64,000 nucleotides of DNA from Armatimonadota bacterium (GCA_038248345.1 JBBRXO010000002.1:6506-70505), one strand, 5' to 3'. Counted from the stretch's first letter, positions 7,216 to 61,598 are shown. The notes: generated by a model from the letters alone, not told the origin. Program-made: numbers and translations.

Positions 7216-10200
7216 TTAGTGGGCCGGCGGTGCCAATGCCGCCGGAATAGAGATAATTTGTCCTGTCGCGTTGGCCTTAGCCTGCGCATATTTGATGATA
7301 TTCGGTTGTACCACAATCAACAGCTCCTTACGTTGTGGAGATTTCTTTGTCGAGCTGAATAACCAGTTACCGATTAGCGGAATCTGGCCTAGCACCGGGA
7401 TGCTGGTACGGACAACACTATTAGTGGTCTGGATCATGCCGCCGATTACCAGCATCTCTCCGTCGCGAACCTTGACGGTGGTAGAACAGTTACTGGTGGT
7501 AATCACCGGCAGGTCAACCCCGTTATCTCTGCGGAAGGTCGGGTTATCTGTCACTGATGTGGTGATGTCCAAAGTGATGATACCATCGTTGGTAGTTTGC
7601 GGACGAACCTTCATTACTACACCAGTATCAATTGTTTGGGTGGTAAATACCGGCCCGTTATTCGTCTGATTGGTAACGGTCTGGTAGTAAATCTTACCGC
7701 CAGCCTGGAAGACCGTCTCTTTGCCTGACTGTACGGTAGTAGAAGGTCTACTTTCAATTCTCGCTTTATTCGTGGATGTTAGCGCCGCCAGACTAGTGCT
7801 GAAGGCGAGGGGGTCGCGGATTATACGCCCAAGCACTAACGGATTGCCACTCTGCGTTTCTCCGGTACCGATCGTGACCCCACCAGGCGTAACAACGCCG
7901 CCATTCACACCACCCCAGGTGATGCCCAGGTTCTTCACTTGACCTTCGTCAACACTGATAATCGTTGCCGTGATTTGAATCTGCGAAGGCTCAGTATCTG
8001 TCTCAAGTATCTTGGCTTCCGCTAATTTAACGATATCATCCGGACCCGATAGTTGCAAAATAACGTTATCGCTTGCGCCGGCAGTGGCACCGCCAAGTGA
8101 TGCAACTCCAGTACCTGAGTTCGTTGGAGTAGGCGTAGTGCCCATCGTATCAGGGCCAACCGATACCATCAGACCATCTTTGCCATACAGGTCGAGCAAC
8201 ATCGTTTTGGTACTATCAACTTTAACGAAGCGCAGGATCACTTGTCTGATCACTTTTCTCGGCCCATTGTCCAGACTGTTGAGCGTAGCCAAGGCCATCT
8301 CTACTGTCTCTTTGGGCCCCTGTAACTCAAACTTGCCAATCGGCTCTACAATGCTCAATGTCCCATCTGCCTTACGTACCACTGGCATCCCGAGTGAGCT
8401 GTTGCCCGCGGCTAGGCTGAAGATACTCGGCGGCAAGGTGATGATCGTCAACCCCTTAGCCTCATACTGCCCCAGCAGGTAGTTAATCGCCGTCGAGGCC
8501 GGGATGGAATCAACCTTGGTGACTACCTTGGCCATTGGGATATCGACATCCATAGTATTCAGTGATGCCAGCGCACTGTCGATGACATTCTTTGGGCCAT
8601 TCAAAATGATATCGTTGCTGGTCCAATTAGTACTCGTACCGCCAGGCATAGCTGCCCAGTTCGGATTAGGGAGGTAGGATACCTTCAAGCCAGCATCCTT
8701 ATAGCTGTTCTCCAGGTACTGCTTCACCTGTGCCGGAATAAGTGACTTGATATGGTATCTGCTCTCCACAATCGTTGCGGCTGTCGTATTGCCCGCGCCG
8801 GTAGTGGGGAGATCAATGGAGGCAATCAGACCTTTTGCTTCTGCAATGCTGCGCGCCGGACCGACAAGCATCAAGTGTGCATTGACTTCGGTTGCAATAA
8901 TATCCTTATAGGCAATTTTCAACGCCTCAATGGCTGCAGCAGGCGAAATATTTGTCAGTGTCAACACTGCATTGGTACTGGCATCTACATTTACACCCGG
9001 TGCGATATCAATTTTCGCCAGCAAAGTCTTAAGGGATTCGAGATTGTCTTTTGCTCCGACGATGTATATTCGATTGGTTCCCATCCCCATCACCTTCAGG
9101 TCTTTGTAGGTATTGGTGATGGCGGTAGTAGCCTCGGCAATAGTCAACTGCTGCAGTGTGTAGGTAAGATTACCTTCTACTTCAGGATTCCTGTCAATTA
9201 AGTCGAGGAAGTTTTTTGCGCTCTTTAAATTTAACACCGTGCCGATGAGCACGATTTGATTACCAGTCTCACCCACGGGAGCGCTTTTCACATCTTTATA
9301 GGGGAGCTCCAGCGCTTTGGCTACTTCTGCAGGACGCATATACTTCAATGTTACTAACATGTTGGTGATCGGTTCAGGTCCCTGTACCTTTTCAGTGTCA
9401 ATGAAATTAAGGAACTTCACCGCTTCCGCCAGACGTGGCGCGGTGCCCGCCAATACCAGCCGATCTACCGGCAGAAAAACGGTTTTAATGTCCTTATATA
9501 CGGTGCCTAATGCCGCGATGGCGTCCTCCTTGGATAACGCCTGCAGTCGATAGGTCACTGTTTCATCAGGTTGCGGCAAATTAACTGCCGCCGAGGAGGC
9601 GTCAATTAACTCCAGCAAGGATTTCGCCGCTTGAAGGCGCTCGGTAGAACCTAGCAGGAGTACCGTACCATTTGAGAAACCTTTCGCACGAACATCCCGC
9701 GCCGAGAGGCTTATCGCGGTTTCAGCATCAGCCGTCGTCATATTATGGAGCGTTACTACCTGTTGTGTCTCCAGCTGAGGATTTGTCCCGTTTGTACTTG
9801 GACTGTTTAGAACATTCAGGAAGGAGACGGCGGCCTTCAGCCGTGATGGCGCCCCCATGAGCACAATCCGACTATCCTTCATGGACTTTACCGTGACATC
9901 TTTGAAAACCACACCCAGTGCTGCTTCTGCATCCGCAGCAGTAACGTTATCCAGTTTCACTACCTGATATATCTCGGAAGCGCTTGTCCCGGAAATTGAG
10001 GCTGCGGTAAAATCCAACTGATCGATGAAAGATTTAGCGGCCTTGATTCGTGAAATTGAACCCACCAGCAGTACCCGGCCATCGACCGTCTTAACCTGCA
10101 CGTCCTTATACATTACCCCCAGCGCAGCCTCGACATCAGCCGGACTGATCTTTTGTAATGTCAAAATTGCGATCTGTTGATTTTGCACACCGTATTGGTC

Positions 10201-16676: not shown

Positions 16677-16785
16677 TTGGGGCACATGGCATGTGCCCTC
16701 TATACGGGATATGGGATTATATGACCAATTGTAAGGTATGATTACGACATGGGCACAAGCCTTTTGCCCCTATAATCGGGTTGTT
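16677..16785 (+). repeat. Double-hairpin intergenic repeat, copy A (GGGGCACATGG/CATGTGCCC ... GGGCACAAGCC/TTTTGCCCC)
   Basis: About 90% identical to 43467..43575 and reverse-complement-similar to 19865..19958. Confidence 0.7.
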
Positions 16786-16856: not shown

Positions 16857-17960
16857 CTACCCCAGCACCTTCTCCAACGCGGCAACGAATTTTTTATTTT
16901 CCGCTTCCGTCCCGAAGGTCACCCTGATCATTGTCGGGTAGCCGAAGATGTCGCCAGTGCGTACGATCACTCCCTGTTTCAGCAACTGCTGGAACACCTC
17001 ACGGCACGGTTTGCCGGTATCTACCAGCACAAAGTTGGCCTCACTGGGGACGTAGGTAAGACCCAGCCGATCAAACGCGCCATAGAGCAGCACCTTGCCC
17101 GCTTCGTTGGCGGCGATACTACGCGGGATCTGCTCGGGATCGTTGAGGCTGGCGATGGCCGCCCACTGCGCCAGATTCGCCACGTTGAATGGCTCGCGCA
17201 CCTGGTTCAACGCCGTCATCACCTCCGGGCGGCTACTCACTCCATAGCCGACGCGCAAACCTGCGAGGGCGTAGATCTTCGAAAAGGTGTGCAACACGAT
17301 GACGTTTTTGCCCGCCTTCACATACTCCATCGCCGAACCAAAGGCCGGGTTGGTCGCATACTGATAATATGCCTCGTCCAGCACCACCAGCACGTGCTCC
17401 GGCACGCGTGCAATGAAGGAATCCACTTCCGCCTTAGTATTCACCGCTCCAGTGGGGTTGTGCGGGTTGGCGATATACAACAGTTTTGTGTTGGGGGTGA
17501 TCGCTGCCAGCATCCCCTCCAGATCATGAGCGAAATCAGCGCGCAGCTCCACCTTCACCGGGACAGCGCCCATCAATAAGGTGCTGATCTCGTACATACT
17601 GAAAGGCGGGTCGCCCATCACCACTTCGTCGCCCGGCTCCAGATAGGCAGTGGCGAGGAAATGCATTACCTCGTCGCTGCCGCGTCCGGCGATTATCTGC
17701 CCGGCTTCCACGCCGAGAGTAGCCGCCAGTGCTGTGCGTAATTCAAAGCTATCGTTATCGGGATAGAGGCGGACATCACGCAGGTGCTCCTGCATCGCCG
17801 CAACTGCCAGCGGTGACGGCCCCAGCGGGTTCTCGTTCGACGCCAGTTTGATGATCGACTTCGGATCCAGTCCCAACTCACGTGCCACTTCCTCAATCGG
17901 CTTCCCCGGCGAATACGGCGTAATCGCGTCAATAGCTGCTCTGTATGATGTCTTACTCAT
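16857..17960 (-). CDS. hisC: Histidinol-phosphate aminotransferase
   Basis: KLASNENPLGPSPLAV..., class II aminotransferase motifs, about 367 aa. Confidence 0.8.
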   Translation of the reverse strand: MSKTSYRAAIDAITPYSPGKPIEEVARELGLDPKSIIKLASNENPLGPSPLAVAAMQEHLRDVRLYPDNDSFELRTALAATLGVEAGQIIAGRGSDEVMHFLATAYLEPGDEVVMGDPPFSMYEISTLLMGAVPVKVELRADFAHDLEGMLAAITPNTKLLYIANPHNPTGAVNTKAEVDSFIARVPEHVLVVLDEAYYQYATNPAFGSAMEYVKAGKNVIVLHTFSKIYALAGLRVGYGVSSRPEVMTALNQVREPFNVANLAQWAAIASLNDPEQIPRSIAANEAGKVLLYGAFDRLGLTYVPSEANFVLVDTGKPCREVFQQLLKQGVIVRTGDIFGYPTMIRVTFGTEAENKKFVAALEKVLG

Positions 17961-19864: not shown

Positions 19865-20319
<455 letters not shown>

Positions 20320-23799: not shown

Positions 23800-23844
23800 G
23801 AAGTCCCCGTAGCATGGGCGTCCCACCCATGAGAACGGGGATTA

Positions 23845-23990
23845 ACACCACGCGCTAAAGCACGTGGCTATAAGATCATGCATCCTGAAGGGCGCTGGAC
23901 ATTCGATTCCGAAAAGTCCGCGAAGGCGAACGAACGGCGCGTAGCGCCCTGCAGCCGGGATTTCAATCCCAGCGGAAAGAGGTTTTGCAT
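23845..23990 (-). repeat. Modular hairpin repeat family 2, copy a (reverse orientation)
   Basis: Reverse complement aligns to 31940..32070 (gggattgaaatcccgg, gtccgccttcgcggac modules). Confidence 0.6.
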
Positions 23991-24203
23991 TTACCTCAAA
24001 TGTGGTATGGCAGGAATATCGTTTTTAGCGATAATCCGTCCTCCCTGGCCTGACCATGAACGACCAGGCGAACAGGAGGGACGCTAAAAAATCTATACTT
24101 GGGGGAGGTATGGACAGTATCTCATATTGCTGATATTCTATCCTTATTATGTGGACGAGATATCTCTATATAATGTTATTGTTATATTTCTCTATGGGGT
24201 GAA

Positions 24204-24325
24204 AATCTGATGTCGCAGAAACCCTTAGCCCAGCCGTTCACGAATATGCGCCAGGCTATCGTATTGAACACTCGAAAACCAGCCTTGAAACTTGGGACTT
24301 AAAACTGTCTTGCAGGAGAAAAGCC
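24204..24325 (+). promoter_or_regulatory. Conserved upstream leader element (aatctgatgtcgcRgaaWccctt ... ttgaacact.aaaacc ... CTTGRAA heptamer array) immediately 5' of paaK
   Basis: Aligns with 31362..31515 and the minus strand of 33877..34010. Confidence 0.5.
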
Positions 24326-25645
24326 ATGTCAAACACCGGCCATAGTTCAACCATTTACAACCCTCTATATGAATGCATGGAACGCGAGGAGATGCGGGCG
24401 CTGCAACTGCGCCGCATGAAGGACGTGGTCTCGCGCGTCTACAATCATATCCCGGCCTACCGCCAGAAATGCGAGGAGCTGGGCGTCACTCCGATGCACA
24501 TGCAGACGCTGGCCGATATCGCTCACTTTCCCTTCACCATCAAGACAGACTTCCGCGATAATTACCCCTACGGCATGTTCAGTGTGCCCATTGAGGAAGT
24601 AATCCGCATTCACATGTCCAGTGGCACCACCGGCAAACCCACAGTGGTAGGCTATACCAGGAACGACATCGACCTGTGGTCACAGGTGATCGCGCGTTCC
24701 CTCGGATGCGCAGGCGTCACCCGCAAAGACATCGTGCAAGTATGCTACGGCTACGGGCTTTTTACCGGTGGCCTGGGCATACATTACGGGGCGGAGTTGT
24801 ACGGCGCCACCGTTATCCCGGTTTCGGGTGGTAACACTGCCCGCCAGGTGATGTTGATGGAGGATTTCGCCTCCACCGTCATCGCCTCCACTCCCAGCTA
24901 TGCGCTGTATCTGGCCGAGGTCGCCGCCGAAGCGGGGGTACTCGACAAGCTGAAACTACGCATCGGCATCTTCGGCGCCGAGCCGTGGTCAGAGGGGATG
25001 CGCCGGGAGCTGGAGAGCAAACTGAAGCTGAAGGCGCTGGATATTTACGGCATGTGCGAGCTGATAGGCCCGGGAGTGAGCAATGAATGCGAACACCAGC
25101 AGGGACTGCACATCTTCGAGGATCACTTCTACCCGGAGATCATCAACCCGGATACCGGTGAAGTACTCCCCGAAGGGAGCATCGGTGAGCTGGTGGTGAC
25201 CACCATGACCAAAGAGGCGGTGCCCATCATCCGCTACCGCACGCGCGATATCACCTCGCTCAACTACGAGAAATGCTCCTGTGGCCGCACCATGGTGCGT
25301 ATGGATCGCGTCACCGGGCGCAGCGATGATATGCTCATCATTCGCGGCGTCAACGTCTTCCCGTCGCAGATTGAGGATGTCTTAACAACCATCGAAGGAA
25401 CCGCACCGCACTACCAGCTACATGTGCGTCGCGAAGGCAACCTGGATGAGATGGAGCTATGGGTAGAGGTAACCGAGGCGGTGCTCAACGACGAAATCCG
25501 CTCGCTGGAAACCCTCAGCCGTCGTATCGGCAACGCGCTACAAAGCGTCCTCAACGTCTCCTGCCGCATAAAACTGGTAGAGCCAAAGTCAATCCAGCGC
25601 AGCGAAGGCAAAGCGAAACACGTTATTGACCATCGCGTGCTGTAA
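24326..25645 (+). CDS. paaK: Phenylacetate-CoA ligase family (aryl-acetate CoA ligase)
   Basis: N-terminal [22 protein letters not shown] and [16 protein letters not shown]-binding motif typical of PaaK. Confidence 0.75.
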
Positions 25646-25743
25646 ATCATGTTTGAAGGTTCGGAGACATGACCACTTGAAATATACGGTAACAACCAGG
25701 GTAACAGCCATCGATAACCACCTCGTATGCGGGGTGGCATAAA

Positions 25744-26328
25744 GTGAGTCAGTTACTCTTCCCTTGCGCAGTTATCATCTTTTTTGGCATCACCTTTTTT
25801 CTGCGTTGGCGTCGAAAACAAATAGAAGATGCTATGCGACGGGAAGATTATGCCAAATGCCAGCGTATTCTGGCGCGTGATCCACGCAACGCAGCGGCCT
25901 ACGCTATGCTGGGGGAGTTACTGGAACGGGACGGCAAACCTGCAGAGGCGTTGAAGGCCTACGAGGCGTCGTTGGCTAACGACCCCAAACAAATAAATAT
26001 GAATTACCGTGTGGAGTGCCTGCAGGATGAGCAGGCATTGCGGGAAAGTGGGCAAATACGGTGCCCGCTTTGCCGCACCATTCAGGTAAAAAGCCCCGGC
26101 AGATGCTGGCAATGCGGCACTGTGTTGCACATGCGCGGTGCCGTGCTGCAAAGCTTGGGGTATCGCGGTATTATTATATTCGCTCTGCTGCTTATTTGCC
26201 TGGTTTCAGCATACGTTTTTGCTGCTCTGCATAAACCTGATCTGGCTTATGGAGCAATAGGCGGCTTTCTCTTCTGCATATTGGGGTTGATCATCAACCA
26301 TAGATTTGGACGACGTAAAAACAATTAG
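25744..26328 (+). CDS. Membrane protein with TPR-like segment and CxxC...CxxC zinc ribbon, two C-terminal TM helices; function unknown
   Basis: Translation features only. Confidence 0.3.
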   Translation: MSQLLFPCAVIIFFGITFFLRWRRKQIEDAMRREDYAKCQRILARDPRNAAAYAMLGELLERDGKPAEALKAYEASLANDPKQINMNYRVECLQDEQALRESGQIRCPLCRTIQVKSPGRCWQCGTVLHMRGAVLQSLGYRGIIIFALLLICLVSAYVFAALHKPDLAYGAIGGFLFCILGLIINHRFGRRKNN

Positions 26329-26338
26329 GAGGCTAGTT

Positions 26339-27004
26339 ATGCGCTACTTGTATATACTTTTGCTTTTCACCTGTGGAATAATCGTCGATGCTATACCCAC
26401 CCAACTTGGCCCCACCGGCGCGGTAACCCTGCCGGGGGCAGAGTGTCTCACCGGCTTTGTGACGGCGGCAGATATCATCGATAATACTAACCAACGCGGG
26501 CGTTTATTGCGCGTCAATTATGGCACAGGTGATGCCGAGGTCGGCCTGCTCTATGGCGCAGATGACGGCAGCACTAGCGGTGTGAATGGCAAACTACGCC
26601 TCACCCCGCACAACGCCGAATTCCCGGCTGCCGTTGGGATTGCCTACCGTGAATACCCCTATTTCAATGAACGCGTCATCTATGCGGCGGTCGAGCATCA
26701 GTTCATCTCCGATGTCAAAGCCACCGTCGGCGTCCAACACGCCCAGATTCATGCCATAACTGGAAATGTCACCGGAACCCGCGGCTACCTCGCCGTGACC
26801 GTGCGAATGCCACGTAACGAAGAAGTCTGCGGAGAAATCCAGACCTTTGGCGATTCACTCTATGAAAGTAGGGCCATCGCCTCAGTGCGCTACACCAAAC
26901 ATTATCGCCTTTATGACTATTCCATCGGCACCACCAACGCCAACGGAATCCTCGGTGGCGACCGCCAGAACCTCTTCGCCGGGATGAGCGTGGCGTGGCG
27001 CTAG
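26339..27004 (+). CDS. Secreted hypothetical protein (signal peptide; beta-rich, possibly a small outer-membrane barrel)
   Basis: MRYLYILLLFTCGIIVDA signal peptide; alternating hydrophobic pattern; weak. Confidence 0.3.
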   Translation: MRYLYILLLFTCGIIVDAIPTQLGPTGAVTLPGAECLTGFVTAADIIDNTNQRGRLLRVNYGTGDAEVGLLYGADDGSTSGVNGKLRLTPHNAEFPAAVGIAYREYPYFNERVIYAAVEHQFISDVKATVGVQHAQIHAITGNVTGTRGYLAVTVRMPRNEEVCGEIQTFGDSLYESRAIASVRYTKHYRLYDYSIGTTNANGILGGDRQNLFAGMSVAWR

Positions 27005-27052
27005 CGCTTTTCTCTACTTGCCCTTTCCCTCCCCGCATGGGTACAATGAAAC

Positions 27053-28105
27053 ATGCTTATCGATGCCAATGGATTGTGTTTGCGGGAGCAGATTGAAGCG
27101 CGGGAGGATCTTATGCTGGCGCCGGAAGCTGCGCGCAGCATCTACTCGCGTGGGCGGCAACGCCCTGAGCTACCCTGTCCTTTTCGCACCGACTTCCAAC
27201 GTGACCGTGACCGGATATTGCATAGCAAATCATTTCGTCGCCTGGCGGGGAAGACGCAGGTCTTCGTCTCCCCGCGCAATGACCACGACCGCACCCGCCT
27301 GACACACAGCTTGGAGGTATGCCAGGTGGCGCGCACGGTAGCGCGGGTATTGCGACTGAACGAAGATTTAACCGAGGCAATAGCGCTGGGACATGATCTG
27401 GGACACAGCGCCTTCGGTCATGCGGGCGAGACGGCGTTGAATTTAATTTATCAGGAGTATGACCCGGACGCGCACTTCCACCATGCCGAGCAGAGCCTGC
27501 GCATGGTAGACCTGCTGGAGCGTGACGGGCGCGGGCTGAACCTTACCTGGGAAGTACGCAACGGCATTGCCCATCACAGCAAAGGTGAAAAAGACTGGCC
27601 ACAAAAGAGCAGCTGGCGTGCGGCAACACTAGAGGGGCAGCTGGTCGCACTGGCAGATCGTATCGCCTACAGCAGCCACGATATCGACGACGCCATGCGT
27701 GCCGGGCTGCTCACCCTCGATCAATTCCCCGCTTTCATCGTGAATAGCCTGGGCACCACCCACTCCGCCCGCCTCACCGCGATGATCGGCGATATCATCA
27801 ATGCCAGCCGTGACCTCTTCTTCATCCGCATGACGCCGGAGATGACGGAGATCACCAACGAATTGAAGAACTTCATGTATCTGAATCTCTACCTGTCCCG
27901 CAGCATGGCCCCCCGCGTGCGCCGTAGCGTGGATGAGACCATCACTGGCCTCTTCCGCCATTACATGGATCACCCCACCGAGGCAGACATCTCCCCCGAT
28001 AACGACACCAGAGCCCGTGCCCGCCTGGTCTGCGACTTTATCGCCGGGATGACCGATGACTATGCCCGCGACGCCTGGCGCGGGGTGAAAAGGAAAACAC
28101 GGTGA
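27053..28105 (+). CDS. dgt: dGTP triphosphohydrolase-like HD-domain phosphohydrolase
   Basis: FQRDRDRILHSKSFRRL, HDLGHSAFGH HD motifs. Confidence 0.75.
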   Translation: MLIDANGLCLREQIEAREDLMLAPEAARSIYSRGRQRPELPCPFRTDFQRDRDRILHSKSFRRLAGKTQVFVSPRNDHDRTRLTHSLEVCQVARTVARVLRLNEDLTEAIALGHDLGHSAFGHAGETALNLIYQEYDPDAHFHHAEQSLRMVDLLERDGRGLNLTWEVRNGIAHHSKGEKDWPQKSSWRAATLEGQLVALADRIAYSSHDIDDAMRAGLLTLDQFPAFIVNSLGTTHSARLTAMIGDIINASRDLFFIRMTPEMTEITNELKNFMYLNLYLSRSMAPRVRRSVDETITGLFRHYMDHPTEADISPDNDTRARARLVCDFIAGMTDDYARDAWRGVKRKTR

Positions 28106-28758
28106 GTTTACCAACAATAAAATCCCCTCTCATCCTCACCGGCGCTTATGGCAGCGGGAAGACGGAGTGTGCGCTGGCGCTCTCGATTACACTGGCGCGT
28201 GATGAAGCGGTGACATTGATCGATATGGATTTCGTCACCCCCTATTTCCGTGCGCAGGATCTGCGGGCTGAGTTGGGCGCGGAGGGCGTTACGGTAATTT
28301 CGTCGGATCTGCGCACCGCTGCCATTGATTCTCCCAGCATCCCCCCGGAGGCGGCGGAACATATCCTGCATCCGCGCGGGCACACGGTGATCGACCTGGG
28401 CGGTGACCCGACGGGCGCGGTGGTGCTGGGGCAATACGCGCCCTACCTGCACAACTATGATATGTGGGCGGTGGTGAACTTCAGCCGCCCCACCACCCCT
28501 ACCCCGGCCATAGCCTCAGTACTGCTGCAGGAGATTATGTCGCAAACCCGCATGAAAATCACCGGCATCGTCAGCAACACCCACCTTGGCCAATTCACCA
28601 CCGCTGAAGATGTGCTGGAAGGGCTGGCGGGTGCCCAAATTCTGGCCAAACTCCTCCACATACCGGTGAAACTATTATGCCTGCCACCGCATATTACGGT
28701 AGAAACTGACTTGCCCACACTACCTATTACACCGCGATTACTAAGGCCGTGGGAATAG
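28102..28758 (+). CDS. Small P-loop NTPase of unknown function (Walker A GAYGSGKTE, hhhhD Walker B LIDMD)
   Basis: 4-nt overlap with the dgt stop, so probably co-translated. Confidence 0.4.
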   Translation: MSLPTIKSPLILTGAYGSGKTECALALSITLARDEAVTLIDMDFVTPYFRAQDLRAELGAEGVTVISSDLRTAAIDSPSIPPEAAEHILHPRGHTVIDLGGDPTGAVVLGQYAPYLHNYDMWAVVNFSRPTTPTPAIASVLLQEIMSQTRMKITGIVSNTHLGQFTTAEDVLEGLAGAQILAKLLHIPVKLLCLPPHITVETDLPTLPITPRLLRPWE

Positions 28759-29068
28759 TCTTAACCCGGATTTTCTTGATTATTAGGATTTTCCTGATAA
28801 TTTACTGCTTGGGGGAGTATCTCATCGACCCAACGGTCCAGTTATCAGGTAAATCCTTAAAATCCTACAAATCTGGGTTCTGACAAAATCCTACCCACCA
28901 CTAGTGTCTCCCACGCCTAGCGCGCACATTAGTAGCGTATCAAAAGAATAAAATGGTTTGCAAAGCTTGACTCGTGCATCCGCTACGTGCTAAGCTAATA
29001 CTGGTTTGGGCGATTTAGAGATCGTCAAAACCATCGTGTTGAGGTATTTTTCTCAACACAATTAGGAG

Positions 29069-29827
29069 GTGCAAGTTTTGCATTTGGTAAAAAATAACAG
29101 TAAGCTCGCCGCGATTTACGGCGTTTTTGTAATATTGATGATGATCTTAAGTCCGTTTCTCACGGACATTGACACTACCGTTAAGCATGGTGGCGCACTG
29201 GCGATGATCTCCCAGGGATTCGCTGCTCCCATCGAACCATTACAGGCGGAAAACATAGCTCCCATAGCCGGGCCGCAAATGACGGCATCAGCAACCTCAA
29301 CTGTCACCGTCGCCCTTCCCTCTGTAGATACCGCTACTCCAGTAACTGTCGCCCCGCCGGCACCAGTTGCCGAGGTGATTCCTCCAGAGGCTAAAAAGAC
29401 CATCGTATCTGCTAGTGAGCTCTTTGCCGAACGTACCCGCATAATTCAGGAACGGGCAGCTAAAGACAGCGGTGAAGTACTGGTAGCCAGCGCCCGTGAA
29501 TTCACCGGCACACCCTATTCGTGGGGCGGCACTTCTTCACGCGGCATTGACTGCAGCGGTCTGGTAGTGCGCGCCATGCAAGCACAAGGGATCGAAGTCC
29601 CCCACCGCGCCGCCGAACTATACAACATGGGCACCTCCATCTCCCGCAGCGACCTTAAAGCCGGCGATCTGGTCTTCTTCGAGACCGGCGGCAACGGCGT
29701 CTCCCATGTCGGCATCTACATCAGCAACAACACCTTCATCCACGCCAGTTCCAAAGCAGGCGTGAAGGAATCGGAGTTAAGCGGCTACTACGCCGATCAT
29801 TACCTGGGAGCAAGAAGGCTGAATTAG
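29069..29827 (+). CDS. NlpC/P60 family cell-wall peptidase (secreted; Pro/Ala/Thr-rich linker)
   Basis: C-terminal GTPYSWGGTSSRGIDCSGLV...HVGIY...HAS catalytic Cys/His arrangement; GTG/TTG start preceded by a hairpin and an AGGAGG RBS. Confidence 0.7.
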   Translation: MQVLHLVKNNSKLAAIYGVFVILMMILSPFLTDIDTTVKHGGALAMISQGFAAPIEPLQAENIAPIAGPQMTASATSTVTVALPSVDTATPVTVAPPAPVAEVIPPEAKKTIVSASELFAERTRIIQERAAKDSGEVLVASAREFTGTPYSWGGTSSRGIDCSGLVVRAMQAQGIEVPHRAAELYNMGTSISRSDLKAGDLVFFETGGNGVSHVGIYISNNTFIHASSKAGVKESELSGYYADHYLGARRLN

Positions 29828-29856
29828 TTCCAAATTCCAAATTCCAAGTTCCAAGG
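29828..29856 (+). repeat. Tandem heptamer array (TTCCAAR x4) immediately after the NlpC/P60 stop
   Basis: ttccaaattccaaattccaagttccaagg read directly from the sequence. Confidence 0.7.
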
Positions 29857-29893
29857 GGCGGCGCGTATGCGCCGCCCTTTTTTTATTATTTGA
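29855..29893 (+). terminator. Rho-independent terminator (GGGGCGGCGCG-tat-GCGCCGCCC followed by T8)
   Basis: Perfect GC-rich hairpin followed by a T-run. Confidence 0.65.
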
Positions 29894-29905
29894 ATCAGCA
29901 CATGG

Positions 29906-29927
29906 CTTGGAACTTGGAACTTGGAAC
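29906..29927 (+). repeat. Inverted heptamer array (CTTGGAA x3) mirroring the 29828..29856 array, just upstream of radA
   Basis: cttggaacttggaacttggaacc is the reverse complement of the upstream array. Confidence 0.7.
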
Positions 29928-29948
29928 CAAATATGCTACCATACCTCC

Positions 29949-31322
29949 ATGCCGAAGAACATCATTTATGTCTGCTCGGAATGTGGCTGCCAGCAACCGC
30001 GCTGGGCGGGGCGCTGCCCGGACTGCGGGGCGTGGGGCGCGCTGGTAGAGGAGGCCGTTGCGGCTGTGGTGAAGACCAAGTCCGTCAGCGGCAAGCCGAT
30101 AAATGTCCTCCGCGCCTCCTCCGCCATTGCCATCAGCGATGTGCCGCCGGGGACAGAGCCACGCCGTGAAACAAAGCTGAGCGAGTTTGACCGCGTGCTG
30201 GGCGGCGGCGCGGTGCCGGGGTCATCCATCCTGCTCGCCGGTACTCCAGGGGTGGGCAAATCCACTTTATTGCTCCAGGTGGGCTACGCGCTGGCGTGTG
30301 CCGGGCATCGTGCGCTCTATGTCACCGGGGAGGAATCGCTGCCGCAACTGCGCATGCGTGCGGAACGGCTGCGCACCATCCATGAGGAAATGCTGGCACT
30401 GGCGGAGACCGAGCTGGAGTCTATCCTGCAGCACATCGCGCTGCTGCAGCCGGCCTTTGTGGTGGTGGATTCCATCCAGACCACCTTCGACGCCGATATC
30501 GAATCCGCGCCGGGCGCAGTGAGCCAGGTGCGCAATGCCGCTATGCGGCTCATCCGCGCCGCCAAAGAATCGGGGGCGACAATCCTGCTCATCGGGCATG
30601 TTACCAAAGAGGGGCAGATCGCCGGGCCGCGCGTACTCGAGCATATGGTCGACGTAGTGCTGGAGCTGGAGGGCGACCGCGACTTCAGCTACCGCATCTT
30701 GCGCGCGGTAAAGAACCGCTTCGGCTCCACGCATGAGCTGGGCATCTTCACCATGAATGACCGCGGTATGGTGGAGGTCCCCAACCCCTCCGCCGCTTTC
30801 CTCAGCGAGCGCCAGACTGGCATGAGTGGTTCGGCGGTGGTGGCGATGATGGAGGGGACGCGGGCATTGCTAGCCGAGGTGCAGGCGCTGGTGACGCCCA
30901 GCGGTGGGTTCGGCGCACCACGGCGCAACGCCAACGGCATCGACATCCGCCGCGTAGCGCATATCCTGGCCGTGCTGGAGAAGCGCGCGGGGATGCCACT
31001 CGGGCAATACGATGTATTCATCAATGTTCCCGGCGGGTTGAAATTGACCGAGCCGGCCGCTGACCTGGCGGTGGCGCTGGCGGTGGCGAGTAGTTTCCGT
31101 GACGTACCGGTGCAGGCGGGCATGGTCTGCTTCGGCGAAGTAGGGCTGACCGGGGAGATCCGCACAGTATCGCACGCCGACCGCCGCCTCGCCGAGACTG
31201 CGCGGCTAGAGTTCACCAGCTGCCTGACCCCGCCGGGCAAATACCCCGGCAAAAAACCCGGCGTCAAATGCCATGCTCTCCACAATATCGAGCAGGCCTT
31301 TGAGCTGGCATTGATAAGGTGA
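29949..31322 (+). CDS. radA: DNA repair protein RadA/Sms (zinc finger, RecA-like ATPase, Lon-like C-terminal domain)
   Basis: MPKNIIYVCSECGCQQPRWAGRCPDCGAWG zinc finger; Walker A GTPGVGKSTLLLQ; KNRFG motif. Confidence 0.85.
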   Translation: MPKNIIYVCSECGCQQPRWAGRCPDCGAWGALVEEAVAAVVKTKSVSGKPINVLRASSAIAISDVPPGTEPRRETKLSEFDRVLGGGAVPGSSILLAGTPGVGKSTLLLQVGYALACAGHRALYVTGEESLPQLRMRAERLRTIHEEMLALAETELESILQHIALLQPAFVVVDSIQTTFDADIESAPGAVSQVRNAAMRLIRAAKESGATILLIGHVTKEGQIAGPRVLEHMVDVVLELEGDRDFSYRILRAVKNRFGSTHELGIFTMNDRGMVEVPNPSAAFLSERQTGMSGSAVVAMMEGTRALLAEVQALVTPSGGFGAPRRNANGIDIRRVAHILAVLEKRAGMPLGQYDVFINVPGGLKLTEPAADLAVALAVASSFRDVPVQAGMVCFGEVGLTGEIRTVSHADRRLAETARLEFTSCLTPPGKYPGKKPGVKCHALHNIEQAFELALIR

Positions 31323-31361
31323 GGAATTAGTGGTAAAGTACGCTTTATTACTTGGCAATAA

Positions 31362-31515
31362 TAATCTGATGTCGCGGAATCCCTTCTCCCCGCCCTGAAG
31401 GACGATCGGCGTAGCCCACTAGCCCTGTCGTTTACGGCTGGGCGATAGGCTGGCGGGTTTGAACACTATAAAACCTGACTTGGAACTTGAAACTATTTTA
31501 ACAAGGAGGAAACCC
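31362..31515 (+). promoter_or_regulatory. Conserved upstream leader element, copy 5' of the osmC-like gene (tgatgtcgcggaatccctt ... ccctgtcgtttacggctgggcga ... ttgaacactataaaacc ... cttggaacttgaaactatttt ... AGGAGG)
   Basis: High similarity to the fhs-upstream element (minus strand) and the paaK-upstream element. Confidence 0.5.
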
Positions 31516-31905
31516 ATGAAGATCACGAGTAAACTAACTGGCCCGATGCGCTTCGACACCGATATCCGTGGCCATACAGTAATCGTCGGGCAACCGATGA
31601 AGAGTGGCGGTGACGACTCCGGCCCCACCCCACCGGAGCTGCTCGCCACCTCTCTCGGCACCTGCGTCGGCGTCTATGCGCTCTATTTCTGCACTAAACA
31701 CGACATCGACCCTACCGGCATGGAGGTCACCACCGAGTACGCCAAAGCCGAACATCCCGCCCGCCTGGTAGACTTTGTAGTGACCATAACCGTACCGGCT
31801 GGCATCGCCGAAGAAATGAAAGAGCCGTTTTTAGCGACGGTAGAAAAATGCCTGATCCACAATACCCTGCATGAGCCACCGGCGGTGGAGATTAAGGTGG
31901 GATGA
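31516..31905 (+). CDS. OsmC/Ohr family peroxiredoxin-like protein
   Basis: MKITSKLTGPMRFDTDIRGH...GPTPPELLATSLGTCVG OsmC signature; AGGAGG RBS. Confidence 0.7.
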   Translation: MKITSKLTGPMRFDTDIRGHTVIVGQPMKSGGDDSGPTPPELLATSLGTCVGVYALYFCTKHDIDPTGMEVTTEYAKAEHPARLVDFVVTITVPAGIAEEMKEPFLATVEKCLIHNTLHEPPAVEIKVG

Positions 31906-31939
31906 AGGGGTAGATCATAAGAGAGAGGTGTTTGCAATA

Positions 31940-32130
31940 CTCTTTCCCGCTGGGATTGAAATCCCGGCTGCAGGGCGCTGCGCGCCGGTCGTCCGCCTTC
32001 GCGGACTTTTCTGAATCGAATGATAGCGCGCTTTAGCGTACTTGCCGTTGTTAGCCACCTCTTTCAGGGGGTGGCGCCGGGAATCGCAATCCCGCTCTAA
32101 TGGGCGGGACGCCACTGCTACGGGTAGCGG
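31940..32130 (+). repeat. Modular hairpin repeat family 2, copy b (longest copy: gggattgaaatcccgg, gtccgccttcgcggac, atgatagcgcgctttagcgtacttgccgttgttagccacctctttcagggggtggc modules)
   Basis: Modules recur at 23845, 41465, 44868 and 49700/49818. Confidence 0.65.
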
Positions 32131-32163
32131 AACCATGACCATTTGCATTGACGTGGTCTATCC

Positions 32164-33876
32164 TTAGCTCAACCCCACAATCTCCCCGTTCTCATCGATA
32201 TCAATATGCGTGCCAGCCGGGTTGCTGGGCAACGAGGGCATGGTGGCCATTTCTCCGACTAGCGGGTAGAGGAAGCCGGCACCAGCGGCGGGGCGGATGT
32301 CGCGGATGGGGATGGTGAAGCCGGTGGGACGGCCTTTCAGCTTGGGGTCATGCGAGAGCGAGAGGTGGGTCTTGGCCATGCAGATGGGCAGTTTGTCCAG
32401 TCCCCAGGCGGTGTAGCGTTTGATGCGCTCCTCGGCCAGCGGGGTGTAGCTGACGCCTGCAGCGCCGTAGATATTCGTGGCGATGGCTTCGATCTTCTCC
32501 TTGATGGTGTCATCGTCGGCGTAGAGCAACTTGAACTCCGATGGTTGTGCGCAGGCGGCGACCACGGCGTCCGCCAGCTCGATACCACCTTCTCCGCCAC
32601 GTGCCCAGACATCGCTGACGCAGGCGGCAAATGCCCCGGCGGCCAGTGCGCGCTCGCGGATGTAGGCCACCTCGGCAGGGGTGTCGGTGGGGAAGCTGTT
32701 GAGCGCTACCACCACCGGGATGCCGAAGAGCAGCATGTTCTCCACCTGCTTCTCCAGGTTGCCGATACCGGCGGCCAGCGCCTCCATATCCTCCTGGCCC
32801 AGGCGTGGGTCGAGCGGTTTACCCGGCGTCACAGTATATTTGCCGCTATGCATCTTCAATGCGCGCACTGTCGCCACCACCACCGCGCAGCTGGGGCGCA
32901 GCCCGCTCTGCCGGCACTTGATATTGAAGAACTTCTCGGCACCCAGATCCGCGCCGAAGCCCGCCTCGGTGACCACGTAGTCGGCCAACTTCAGAGCGAT
33001 GCGGTCGGCCAGTACGCTGTTGTTGCCGTGGGCGATGTTGGCGAATGGGCCGGCGTGTACCAGCACCGGCGTACCCTCCAGCGTCTGGATCAGGTTCGGC
33101 TTGATGGCGTCGCGCAACAGCACCGTCATGGCTCCGGCACAGCGCAAGTCCTCGGCAGTCACCGGTTCGCCGTCGACGTTAGTGGCGACGATGATGCGCC
33201 CCAGACGTTTGCGCAGGTCGTGGATATCGCTGGTGAGCGCCAGCGCCGCCATGGCCTCGCTGGCGACGGTGATATCAAAACCGGTCTCGCGCGGCACCCC
33301 GCCACGCCGCTGTACCGGCAGATCAGCACCCAGCCCCACTACGATGTTGCGCAGCGCCCAGCCGTCGCTGATATCCACCACGCGCTTCCAGGTGATTGTT
33401 TGCGGGTCAATGCGCAGGGGATTGCCGTGCTTCAGCGAGGCATCGATGAAGGCGGCCAGCAGGTTATTGGCTGCGCCAATAGCATGGATATCGCCGGTGA
33501 AGTGCAGGTTGACATCCTCCATGGGCAGCACCTGTGAATATCCGCCCCCCGCCGCCCCACCCTTGATGCCGAAGACCGGCCCCAGCGAGGGTTGCCGCAG
33601 CGTGATGCAGGCGCGCCGCCCGGTCTTCGCCAACGCCTGCCCGAGGCCTATTGTGGTTACGGTTTTGCCCTCGCCCAGCGGCGTGGGGGTGATGGCGGTG
33701 ACCACCACCAGCTTCCCCTCCGGCACCTCCGCCAGCCGCTGCAGGATGCTCAGCTCAATCTTCGCCTTCACACGTCCATATTGCTCCAGCTCCGTGTCCA
33801 GAATCCCCAGCACCCCGGCGATCTCGGTGATAGGCCGCGCGGTGTGCGCATGTACGATATCTAAATCAGTCAGCAA
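32164..33876 (-). CDS. fhs: Formate-tetrahydrofolate ligase
   Basis: Full-length FTHFS-like translation (EGKTVTTIGL P-loop and others); TTG start preceded by a GGAGG RBS. Confidence 0.9.
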   Translation of the reverse strand: MLTDLDIVHAHTARPITEIAGVLGILDTELEQYGRVKAKIELSILQRLAEVPEGKLVVVTAITPTPLGEGKTVTTIGLGQALAKTGRRACITLRQPSLGPVFGIKGGAAGGGYSQVLPMEDVNLHFTGDIHAIGAANNLLAAFIDASLKHGNPLRIDPQTITWKRVVDISDGWALRNIVVGLGADLPVQRRGGVPRETGFDITVASEAMAALALTSDIHDLRKRLGRIIVATNVDGEPVTAEDLRCAGAMTVLLRDAIKPNLIQTLEGTPVLVHAGPFANIAHGNNSVLADRIALKLADYVVTEAGFGADLGAEKFFNIKCRQSGLRPSCAVVVATVRALKMHSGKYTVTPGKPLDPRLGQEDMEALAAGIGNLEKQVENMLLFGIPVVVALNSFPTDTPAEVAYIRERALAAGAFAACVSDVWARGGEGGIELADAVVAACAQPSEFKLLYADDDTIKEKIEAIATNIYGAAGVSYTPLAEERIKRYTAWGLDKLPICMAKTHLSLSHDPKLKGRPTGFTIPIRDIRPAAGAGFLYPLVGEMATMPSLPSNPAGTHIDIDENGEIVGLS

Positions 33877-34010
33877 ATTATTACCTCCAAAAATAGTTCA
33901 GGTTCCAATTTCCAAGTTTCGAGGTTGGTTTTGAGTGTTCAACTCGCCCAGCCGTGAACGATAGGGCTTGTGGGCTACACTTATTATCCGCCTATGCGGA
34001 CTTTTTTGCT
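33877..34010 (-). promoter_or_regulatory. Conserved upstream leader element, copy 5' of fhs (minus strand: ...gtccgcataggcggat...gtagcccacaagccctatcgttcacggctgggcgag ttgaacactcaaaacc ... cttggaaattggaacctgaactattttt GGAGG)
   Basis: Aligns module by module with the osmC-upstream copy. Confidence 0.5.
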
Positions 34011-34224
34011 ACTACGATTACCTGTGTCTATTTGTTCGCCACCATGCACGTCGGTTCCTGTTTTTTAAATGTGGGCTTCGCGCTACCCGGTATTCTATTA
34101 TCTTTTACCTATTTTTCAGAAATATCGTTGAAAATAGTGGCAAATATTGACCCAAAATACCCGCCATTTTATCGACAAAACCGTTATAATATAAGCAATC
34201 AGTAACCAGAAAGTATTTGTTGTC

Positions 34225-41355: not shown

Positions 41356-41464
41356 AGTAGATTCTCCTTTGACAGTATTATACCCATAATAATTGCAAAT
41401 GTGCAATCGTATTTGTGTGATAATGCAAGCAATAGTAAAGAGTTACGCTGGGACTAAAGTACCG

Positions 41465-41595
41465 GCTGCGTGGCATTAATGCCGGTAGTCCGCCTTCGCG
41501 GACTTTACATATATGGTAATAGCGCGCTTCAGCGTGCTTGCAGTTGTTAGCCACCTCGTTTACGGGGCGGGACGCCCATGCCACGACTATCTCTT
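41465..41595 (+). repeat. Modular hairpin repeat family 2, copy c
   Basis: gtccgccttcgcggac plus atagcgcgcttcagcgtgcttgcagttgttagccacctcgtttacggggcgggacgcc. Confidence 0.6.
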
Positions 41596-43466: not shown

Positions 43467-43575
43467 TAGGGGCACATGGCATGTGCCCTCAATACGGGGT
43501 ATGAGATACATGACCAATTGAAGGTATGGTTACGATGTGGGCACAAGCCTTGTGCCCCTACAATCGGGTTGTGGG
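43467..43575 (+). repeat. Double-hairpin intergenic repeat, copy C
   Basis: About 90% identical to 16677..16785. Confidence 0.7.
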
Positions 43576-44867: not shown

Positions 44868-44932
44868 CTATGATAGCGCGCTTCAGCGTGCTTGCCGTTG
44901 TTAGCCACCTCCTTCAGGGGGTGGCTTTCCCT
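44868..44932 (+). repeat. Modular hairpin repeat family 2, copy d (tgatagcgcgcttcagcgtgcttgccgttgttagccacctccttcagggggtggc)
   Basis: Near-identical to the core module of 31940..32130. Confidence 0.65.
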
Positions 44933-47408: not shown

Positions 47409-47476
47409 TCTTCGTGTCTTCGTGCCTTCGTGGTTCACAATAACTAGGAACTAGGAACTAGAAACTACGAACTCCC
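47409..47476 (+). repeat. Two adjacent tandem arrays upstream of the sensor kinase: (T/C)CTTCGTG x3 then AACTNNN x5
   Basis: tcttcgtgtcttcgtgccttcgtg ... aactaggaactaggaactagaaactacgaactccc; the cttcgtgtcttcgtggttca core recurs at 491..520. Confidence 0.65.
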
Positions 47477-49699: not shown

Positions 49700-49762
49700 T
49701 CCTTTACCACGCGCTAAAGCACATGGCTATAAGATCAAGCACCCTGAAGGGCGCTGCTAATC
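49700..49762 (-). repeat. Modular hairpin repeat family 2, copy e (inverted relative to copy f)
   Basis: Reverse complement cagcgcccttcagggtgcttgatcttatagccatgtgctttagcgcgtggt aligns with 49818..49885. Confidence 0.6.
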
Positions 49763-49817
49763 CAATAATTACTTCCTTTATCTGCCCATGCCACGAAAAG
49801 CCATAACGTTTATTCTC

Positions 49818-49885
49818 AATTAGATGATAGAGCGCTTTAGCGTGCTTGATCTTATAGCCACGTCCTTTAGGGCGTGGAGGTGTCA
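49818..49885 (+). repeat. Modular hairpin repeat family 2, copy f
   Basis: gatagagcgctttagcgtgcttgatcttatagccacgtcctttagggcgtgga. Confidence 0.6.
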
Positions 49886-61210: not shown

Positions 61211-61418
61211 TAGGTTCCAACGAGGCTATTGTCTTAGAACCTTGATTCACCTGATTAGAGGATTAGCATAAGGATATTGCCTCTGCTGTTGGATAGCGCA
61301 TAATTGAATGTAGGTAAAAACATTACTGCAGAGGCTATCCAACAGTGTAGACAAATAGCGCAGCAATAAATCCTTTAATCAGGCGAATCAAGGTTCTAAG
61401 ACAATGAAGGCGTTCCCA
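61211..61418. repeat. About 200-bp nested inverted-repeat element (outer arms about 45 nt, ...attgtcttagaaccttgattcRcctgattaRaggatt; inner arms ctgctgttggatagc / gctatccaacag)
   Basis: Read directly from the sequence; lies in the divergent gap between dtd and the FGE pseudogene. Confidence 0.6.
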
Positions 61419-61598
61419 GGGAGTTATATACCCCCCATTTTTAACGCGCCACGGCGGGCGCGGGCTACAACTCTTTGTACGCCGCCGTCCCTATTTTCTA
61501 TTTTCTACTTTCTACTTCCTCTCGCCCCCCATTGCCGAACCCCCACCATAAGATGAATCATCAGCCAAATACTATTCTAGAAATGGAGGAACCATACC

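Follow-up and report, generated by a model that had tools for sequence, protein, structure and literature searches.

Modular leader repeats with tandem heptamer tails upstream of paaK, osmC and fhs in an Armatimonadota bacterium

The 64-kb stretch of DNA analysed here (GCA_038248345.1, JBBRXO010000002.1:6506-70505; hereafter the window, with coordinates counted from its first letter) comes from the metagenome-assembled genome of an Armatimonadota bacterium and encodes, among others, paaK, an nlpC/P60 gene, radA, osmC and, on the minus strand, fhs. Upstream of paaK, osmC and fhs lie three related non-coding sequences, built from ordered modules and ending in a run of CTTGRAA-type heptamers beside the Shine-Dalgarno sequence (SD). 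The three loci are, on balance, probably diverged copies of a lineage-specific, modular and dispersed leader repeat with a heptamer tail, of the kind described as putative mobile promoters (PMPs). The three downstream genes belong to unrelated families (Pfam), and the genes upstream of the copies also differ. All copy counts hold for the window and for the loci fetched from relatives; family size and genome-wide orientation bias are outside their scope, as the window's full genome lies outside the collections searched.

The three copies and their modules

24204 to 24325, plus strand: paaK copy, forming the paaK 5' leader
24208 to 24226 (paaK copy) and 31367 to 31385 (osmC copy), plus strand: module 1, TGATGTCGCRGAAWCCCTT; 2 matches in the window against 0.06 expected
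31411 to 31445, plus strand (osmC copy), and 33978 to 33944, minus strand (fhs copy): module 2, GTAGCCCACWAGCCCTRTCGTTYACGGCTGGGCGA, 35 nucleotides (nt); 2 matches against 0.00 expected
From 24264 and 31459, plus strand, and 33942, minus strand: module 3, TTGAACACT..AAAACC, present in every copy; the fhs version lacks 1 nt
24264 to 24280, plus strand: TTGAACACTCGAAAACC of the paaK copy
24284 to 24311, plus strand: degenerate heptamers of the paaK copy, cttgaaa/cttggga/cttaaaa/ctgtctt
24314 to 24318, plus strand: SD of paaK, AGGAG, with the ATG at 24326
31362 to 31515, plus strand: osmC copy, the most complete of the three
31459 to 31475, plus strand: TTGAACACTATAAAACC of the osmC copy
31479 to 31499, plus strand: heptamers of the osmC copy, cttggaa/cttgaaa/ctatttt
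31504 to 31509, plus strand: SD of osmC, AGGAGG, with the ATG at 31516
33877 to 34010, minus strand: fhs copy
34001 to 33986, minus strand: GTCCGC-ATAG-GCGGAT hairpin of the fhs copy
33942 to 33927, minus strand: TTGAACACTC-AAAACC of the fhs copy
33923 to 33889, minus strand: heptamers of the fhs copy, ctcgaaa/cttggaa/attggaa/cctgaac/tattttt
33888 to 33884, minus strand: SD of fhs, GGAGG, with the TTG start at 33876

The modules and copies described by the initial annotation were all found where it had placed them, and the homology between the copies is far above chance. The nhmmer E values lie between 3e-7 and 4e-9 for the pairs that match better, while paaK against fhs gives about 2e-4, and queries built from the copies retrieve each other and no further sequence in the window. 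The blastn alignments between copies span 69-84% identity over 32-104 nt (72% over 75 nt, 84% over 32 nt, 83% over 42 nt and 69% over 104 nt). Both the paaK and the fhs copy resemble the osmC version with differing internal deletions. The underlying order would begin with an optional module at the 5' end and a hairpin-like, GC-rich one, followed by TTGAAY-N6-7-AAACC, the (YTTGRAA)n-CTATTTT tail and the SD.

Tandem CTTGRAA-type heptamers gave 8 matches in the window against 0.19 expected, a number reached in none of 100 shuffles, while single CTTGRAA words are about as frequent as expected (11 against 11.9); it is therefore only the tandem arrangement that is unusual. Within the three copies the heptamers are degenerate, and their runs failed a strict tandem-repeat test.

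Two pieces are common to the element and to the family-2 repeats of the window, as had been proposed: GTCCGC-N4-GCGRAY (4 sites, 0.02 expected) and CCTGAAGG (6 occurrences, 1.5 expected). The family-2 repeats themselves are about 200 nt long, multi-hairpin and present in both orientations (23800-23995, 31930-32150, 41430-41575, 44870-44925 and 49700-49880). They include a GTCCGC-N4-GCGGAC hairpin (4 sites against 0.02 expected) that is also present in the fhs copy.

Insertion sites in related genomes

Syntenic loci were obtained through 90%-identity clusters of Fhs and PaaK: L006, L007 and L010 from ENA/Logan assemblies, L008 and L013 from GCA_038215455.1, L009 and L016 from a JGI sample, and L014 and L015 from GCA_037140675.1. 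These congeneric loci are 85-90% identical to the window in coding DNA (65-75% at third codon positions). Further Fhs relatives are 74-79% identical, several of them from Armatimonadota metagenome-assembled genomes.

The osmC and fhs sites provide evidence for a dispersed repeat. In L008 and L006 only 11-12 nt separate the radA stop from the osmC start (TAA-aGGAG-N7-ATG), compared with 193 nt in the window. Upstream of fhs, the distance from a GGCGAA box to GGAGGTAATAATTTG is about 20-27 nt in L008, L009 and L006, and the roughly 150 nt more found in the window are the element. Empty orthologous sites in two relatives at osmC and in three at fhs constitute a presence/absence polymorphism; the genomes with these empty sites match the window at 86-90% of coding nucleotides. 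Comparison of these sequences shows that the copies at osmC and fhs were inserted in the window's lineage only, and one gain in that lineage would be more parsimonious than multiple precise losses. The proposal that a repeat had been captured as leader or regulatory DNA within a mosaic system is borne out by these insertions, absent from congeners, and by the modules shared with other repeat families of the window. Broader scans for the element returned two chance matches in genome contigs (Flavobacterium and Spirochaetota), none in viral sequences and, in metagenomes, two chance matches from an AT-rich organism.

What lies beside the insertions is given by the following features.

31311 to 31339, plus strand: TTGATA-17-TAAAGT with TG before it, a sigma70-like site where the radA 3' end meets the insert; a consensus match only
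34035 to 34065, minus strand: bipartite box ACAGGAAC-N15-GGCGAA upstream of fhs, kept in 7 Armatimonadota genomes

The first site is created by the osmC insertion, and its -35 box falls within the last radA codons; it may therefore be a new osmC promoter that makes transcription of this gene independent of radA. No terminator was predicted between radA and osmC in the window. A copying of the osmC SD-to-ATG spacer from paaK was also considered and set aside, as 11 of 19 positions match paaK and 10 of 19 match the gene's own orthologue, which does not discriminate.

The box upstream of fhs takes the form ACAGGAA(C)-N14/15-G(G/T)CGAA across the 7 genomes (L003 at about 1352-1380, L004 at about 9919-9947 and L005 at about 9934-9962, and also L006, L008 and L009), where no RNA structure was found in it. 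The distant fhs relatives (79% identity; L003-L005) share the ACAGGAAC..GGCGAA box and not the element. The box pre-dates the insertion and is probably the fhs promoter or operator; it looks like an alternative-sigma promoter of the extracytoplasmic function (ECF) kind (GGAAC ... CGAA) or an operator.

The paaK copy has a different history. The orthologous leaders carry the same element in at least three congeneric species (L014/L015, E 3e-23; L013, E 2e-12). Only 'aaaccctt' and the heptamer tail remain in L010, and in L016 paaK begins 10 nt after iorB with no leader and no element. Upstream of the element lies a separate block:

24106 to 24196, plus strand: paaK promoter block, 91 nt, 95-97% identical between the window, L014 and L013
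24111 to 24139, plus strand: sigma70-like site TGGACA-17-TATTCT in this block
24166 to 24173, plus strand: TATATAAT box in this block

The 95-97% identity of the block compares with 68-80% at third codon positions in the same three species. The element blocks of the paaK leader are 54-92% identical and the block from heptamers to SD 67-81%, so that the element appears to drift at a roughly neutral rate among orthologues. The conserved promoter region of paaK is this 24106-24196 block rather than the element. The block also holds a pair of boxes that resemble each other (TGGAC..ATCTC..ATAT), spaced by about 45 nt, which could be regulator sites.

At the other end of paaK, octamer arrays (TTTAGGTC, then TTGTTAGG) begin at the stop codon in L010 (11314-11369) and L016 (11302-11470), unlike in the window, where no octamer array follows the gene.

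Heptamer arrays outside the copies

29906 to 29926, plus strand: CTTGGAA x3 array, with TTGAAT before it (29892-29897), 22 nt upstream of the radA ATG (29949)
29828 to 29855, minus strand: reversed array, TTCCAAR x4 on the plus strand, beginning directly after the nlpC/P60 stop codon

The array before radA, also pointed out in the initial annotation, was found, and its sequence links it to the element's 3' half: a profile of that half also retrieves this array (E 4.7e-5) and the reversed one. It is kept in L008 with GGAACTT-type units, while L006 has GACTAGC x2.9 instead. The reversed array adjoins a terminator hairpin (29853-29880) and faces the nlpC/P60 3' end; L008 has a degenerate counterpart after its own nlpC stop.

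Together the two arrays can close the nlpC-radA spacer (29826-29951) into a long hairpin (z -6.4). In L006 the corresponding spacer (17515-17750, minus strand) is bracketed by inverted GACTAGC arrays (z -9.0), so the inverted symmetry is kept though the array sequence differs from the CTTGGAA of the window. In L008 the two arrays stand about 2 kb apart with an extra gene between them, and the spacer stem is therefore not obligatory.

An orphan 3' half-copy was found in L010 (9566-9664, minus strand). It runs from TTGAAT..AAACC through three heptamers and CTATTTT to AAGGAGG and an ATG, which is followed merely by an 11-codon open reading frame into the 3' end of a NERD-domain gene. The arrays at paaK, osmC, fhs and radA are all forward-oriented and 0-22 nt from the SD or start. 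The claim that the element always faces a downstream gene thus holds for the three copies and radA and fails for the reversed array and the orphan half-copy; since such arrays exist, facing a genuine start codon is common and no rule.

Strict arrays of period 7 or 8 are intergenic throughout, five of five in the window and nine of nine in about 91 kb of relatives (14/14), in DNA of which about 13% is intergenic. Those of period 7 number 4 in the window against 0.3 expected. The units vary by locus and species (CTTGGAA, AACTAGG, CTATTTT, TCTTCGTG, GACTAGC, CCTACTT, TTTAGGTC, TTGTTAGG), with at least eight different ones in about 155 kb of the genus and no single dominant heptamer. Orthologous spacers can turn over completely, as upstream of glnB, where L010 has GACTAGC x2.7 and the window has GGGCACA..TGTGCCC palindromes. 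Upstream of iorA in L010, CCTACTT x3.7 stands directly before a TTGACG -35 box.

Further arrays in the window, at 501-520, 47409-47473 and 61491-61517, comprise TCTTCGTG octamers followed by GTTCA and then AACTAGG x4.6, and also CTATTTT x3.4. The 501-540 stretch (..GGTTCAATCTAAAAACC..) resembles the TTGAACACTATAAAACC module.

Nature of the element

A sigma70-like site lies upstream of each copy (24111-24139 and 31311-31339 on the plus strand, 34119-34092 on the minus strand), and none was found inside the element in the three copies. On inspection by hand, TTGAAC, TTGGAA and TATTTT are never 16-18 nt apart, and no consistent ECF-like pairing of GGAAC with a -10 box was seen. The shared promoter proposed in the initial annotation is unsupported in the sigma70 sense. 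Each copy ends 1-4 nt ahead of the SD; lying downstream of a sigma70-like site and ending at the SD, each is therefore probably transcribed as 5' untranslated region (5' UTR), a role that the sequences make more likely than that of a promoter.

In the preferred reading, that of a dispersed leader repeat, the paaK copy would be old and inherited as the paaK 5' UTR, and the osmC and fhs copies would have been gained later, in this lineage only, by insertion between existing upstream signals and the ribosome-binding site (RBS). The cassette would be co-transcribed from the promoters just upstream and would make up most of the 5' UTR. The repeat could have spread as a non-autonomous element that lacks inverted ends, or through illegitimate recombination between short SD-like homologies. 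The heptamer tail would be one case of a genus-wide build-and-replace of 7-8-nt intergenic arrays, probably by replication slippage. So read, the element is not a regulon signal, and it is not a riboswitch either. The cassette might affect translation; if there is a function, it would most plausibly be a modest, sequence-tolerant influence on translation initiation, as proposed for the TAACTGA repeats (PMC4679880), for instance through an unstructured A/U- and GGA-rich tract by the SD that could serve as a ribosome stand-by or RNA-binding-protein site.

Several observations weigh against this reading. Only three copies are visible, all within the window, and at 69-84% identity they do not indicate a recent burst of spread. 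No convincing target-site duplication was found at the osmC and fhs insertions: GAGGAA occurs at both sides of the former and is short and SD-like, and the left edge of the latter is not resolvable. No inverted pair of at least 9 nt (seed 6) spans any of the three copies; lacking terminal inverted repeats, the element is therefore not a classical miniature inverted-repeat transposable element (MITE). That the three full copies all run up to an SD and point towards a start codon could mean function and not chance. The TTGAA..AAACC core is also kept at 16-17 of 19 positions among the paaK orthologues, somewhat above third codon positions.

A shared cis-regulatory signal, in which a protein reads the CTTGRAA heptamers (a CsrA-like one reading GGA, or Csp/S1) and co-regulates paaK, osmC, fhs and radA, either post-transcriptionally or at the promoter, is considered unlikely. 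Besides the common orientation and start-proximal position at four genes, it could draw on the retention of the radA array in L008, on the paaK array, which four species keep with an unchanged unit number, on within-unit substitutions that are mainly G/A, and on the analogous TAACTGA repeats, for which binding of a post-transcriptional regulator has been proposed (PMC4679880). The common regulon signal of the initial annotation is nevertheless not upheld. No array stands at the osmC and fhs orthologues of three relatives, the L006 radA gene has a different heptamer (GACTAGC), and the paaK copy, including its heptamer-to-SD block, is about neutral, which leaves retention at paaK and at the radA gene of L008 only. 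The functions of the genes are unrelated, and the same array type occurs reversed after a stop codon and in the orphan copy.

It is quite unlikely that the cassette is a mobile promoter that brings its own non-sigma70 promoter, with GGAAC or TTGAAC as a -35 box of ECF type, and so turns on the gene behind it. No other piece is as well kept in all copies as TTGAA, and the insertion before osmC parts this gene from radA and could give it independent transcription. The GGAAC(TT) of the heptamers also bears a resemblance to ECF -35 boxes. However, no -10 partner recurs at a fixed distance in the copies, the element holds no sigma70-like site, and paaK already has a strongly conserved promoter upstream. 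The strong SD directly after the heptamers argues in the same direction, since a transcript starting there would have little or no leader.

A bolder proposal joins two novelties, an SD-homing mobile 5' leader under a common heptamer-reading post-transcriptional regulator and, in the inverted spacer arrays, whose sequence changes jointly at the two ends (CTTGGAA in the window, GACTAGC in L006), the ends of a new foldback-like mobile class; it is regarded as distinctly improbable. That the loci are remnants of a foldback-type mobile element, whose inverted ends are the heptamer arrays and whose solo ends are the arrays before genes, is very unlikely. The inverted arrays that bracket the nlpC-radA spacer in the window, the equivalent brackets of another heptamer in L006 and the inverted arrays around the paaK spacer of L010 (9593-9979) are what such an element would leave, but the L008 arrays are separated by a gene, the three full copies have no inverted partner and no transposase is associated.

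A structured leader RNA (riboswitch or attenuator) common to the three genes, another suggestion of the initial annotation, is hardly tenable and already largely refuted: a hairpin is possible in module 2 and the fold of the osmC copy has a stem of 20 bp, but the fhs copy lacks 12 nt and cannot form that stem, orthologous leaders do without the element, RNAalifold of the three copies gave a consensus fold of -6.8 kcal/mol with no compensatory or covarying pairs, single-copy folds are no better than shuffles (z +1.1, -0.9 and -1.6), and Rfam gave no match at the gathering threshold or at E<=5 beyond sub-threshold ones, mostly over the radA terminator region, without counterpart in the other copies. 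Sequestering of the SD by the CCUU or CCUC at the first heptamer, which pairs weakly with it in some copies, was rejected as a candidate; the stems are of only 3-5 bp, with large loops, and inconsistent across copies.

The dispersed leader repeat can be compared with several known kinds. PMPs are homologous 50-150-nt upstream sequences before non-homologous genes of one genome, conserved up to a few nt ahead of the start codon. A transposase is missing from many of the families, and duplication through non-autonomous elements or through recombination is among the mechanisms proposed (Matus-Garcia et al., 2012, PMC3488235). Homologous leaders before non-homologous genes, with non-homologous genes upstream as well, are also found here. 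The present copies do not reach the 80% identity over 50 nt that is required of PMPs and would count only as 'diverged' members; they also differ in that the evidence favours a 5' UTR over a promoter, and in that the insertion polymorphism relative to sister species is seen directly.

The TAACTGA repeats of marine Beggiatoaceae, some Cyanobacteria and Bacteroidetes consist of 2-6 tandem 7-nt intergenic units, mostly forward and a few nt from start codons, with unrelated downstream genes and a suspected role in translation (MacGregor, 2015, PMC4679880). The present arrays share with them at least two tandem 7-nt units, intergenic location, forward orientation and proximity to the start. They differ in the CTTGRAA unit and in the canonical SD that follows the array, whereas TAACTGA overlaps the expected RBS and SDs are rare there. 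With TAACTGA, one specific heptamer dominates genome-wide and related heptamers are rarely in tandem, whereas many units coexist in this genus with no dominant heptamer; here the array also forms the end of a longer dispersed repeat.

The STRR heptamers of cyanobacteria form intergenic tandem arrays, with several unit families per genome, that have been attributed to polymerase slippage. 'Long simple sequence repeats' belong to the same kind (Mrazek, 2007, as summarised in PMC4679880). The present arrays differ from both in phylum and in being short, with 3-4 units at gene boundaries.

BOX and BIME are mosaic interspersed repeats that may sit in 5' UTRs. Correia/CREE and ERIC are cited as MITE-type repeats in PMC3488235. 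All of these resemble the element in being short, modular, non-coding, multi-copy, co-transcribed and present or absent between close relatives, but neither terminal inverted repeats nor a convincing target duplication could be identified here, and there is no sequence relationship.

The ctxAB heptads of Vibrio cholerae lie upstream of the -35 box. The arrays here, in contrast, stand between the likely promoter and the SD, and only the iorA array of L010 is ctx-like in position. The TTTTGAT heptads of ctxAB are described in a preprint as tandem, near the gene start and recruiting transcriptional regulators (bioRxiv 10.1101/2021.05.14.444153).

The element is an addition to known kinds, dispersed leader or promoter repeats and heptamer arrays, here in Armatimonadota. 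The empty sister sites show a leader cassette of about 150 nt added beside the RBS of two housekeeping genes in uncultured Armatimonadota, a clean natural case of leader or promoter re-use, and start-proximal heptamer arrays are extended to another phylum beyond the earlier Beggiatoaceae, Cyanobacteria and Bacteroidetes. If the arrays bind a protein or tune translation, the genus would provide natural pairs with and without them at identical genes; otherwise this is ordinary repeat turnover, and annotation as a regulon motif or riboswitch is unwarranted.

Other repeats were also noted between genes. Paired palindromes resembling repetitive extragenic palindromes, GGGCACAAGGCTTGTGCCCC, stand about 70 nt apart in intergenic DNA of the window (16680-16772, 19867-19959 and 43470-43560) and of L006 (about 17575-17640). 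A 37-nt inverted repeat, 95% complementary, lies at 61228-61405 with a nested inverted repeat at 61277-61354 in a 750-nt spacer, and is MITE- or foldback-like.

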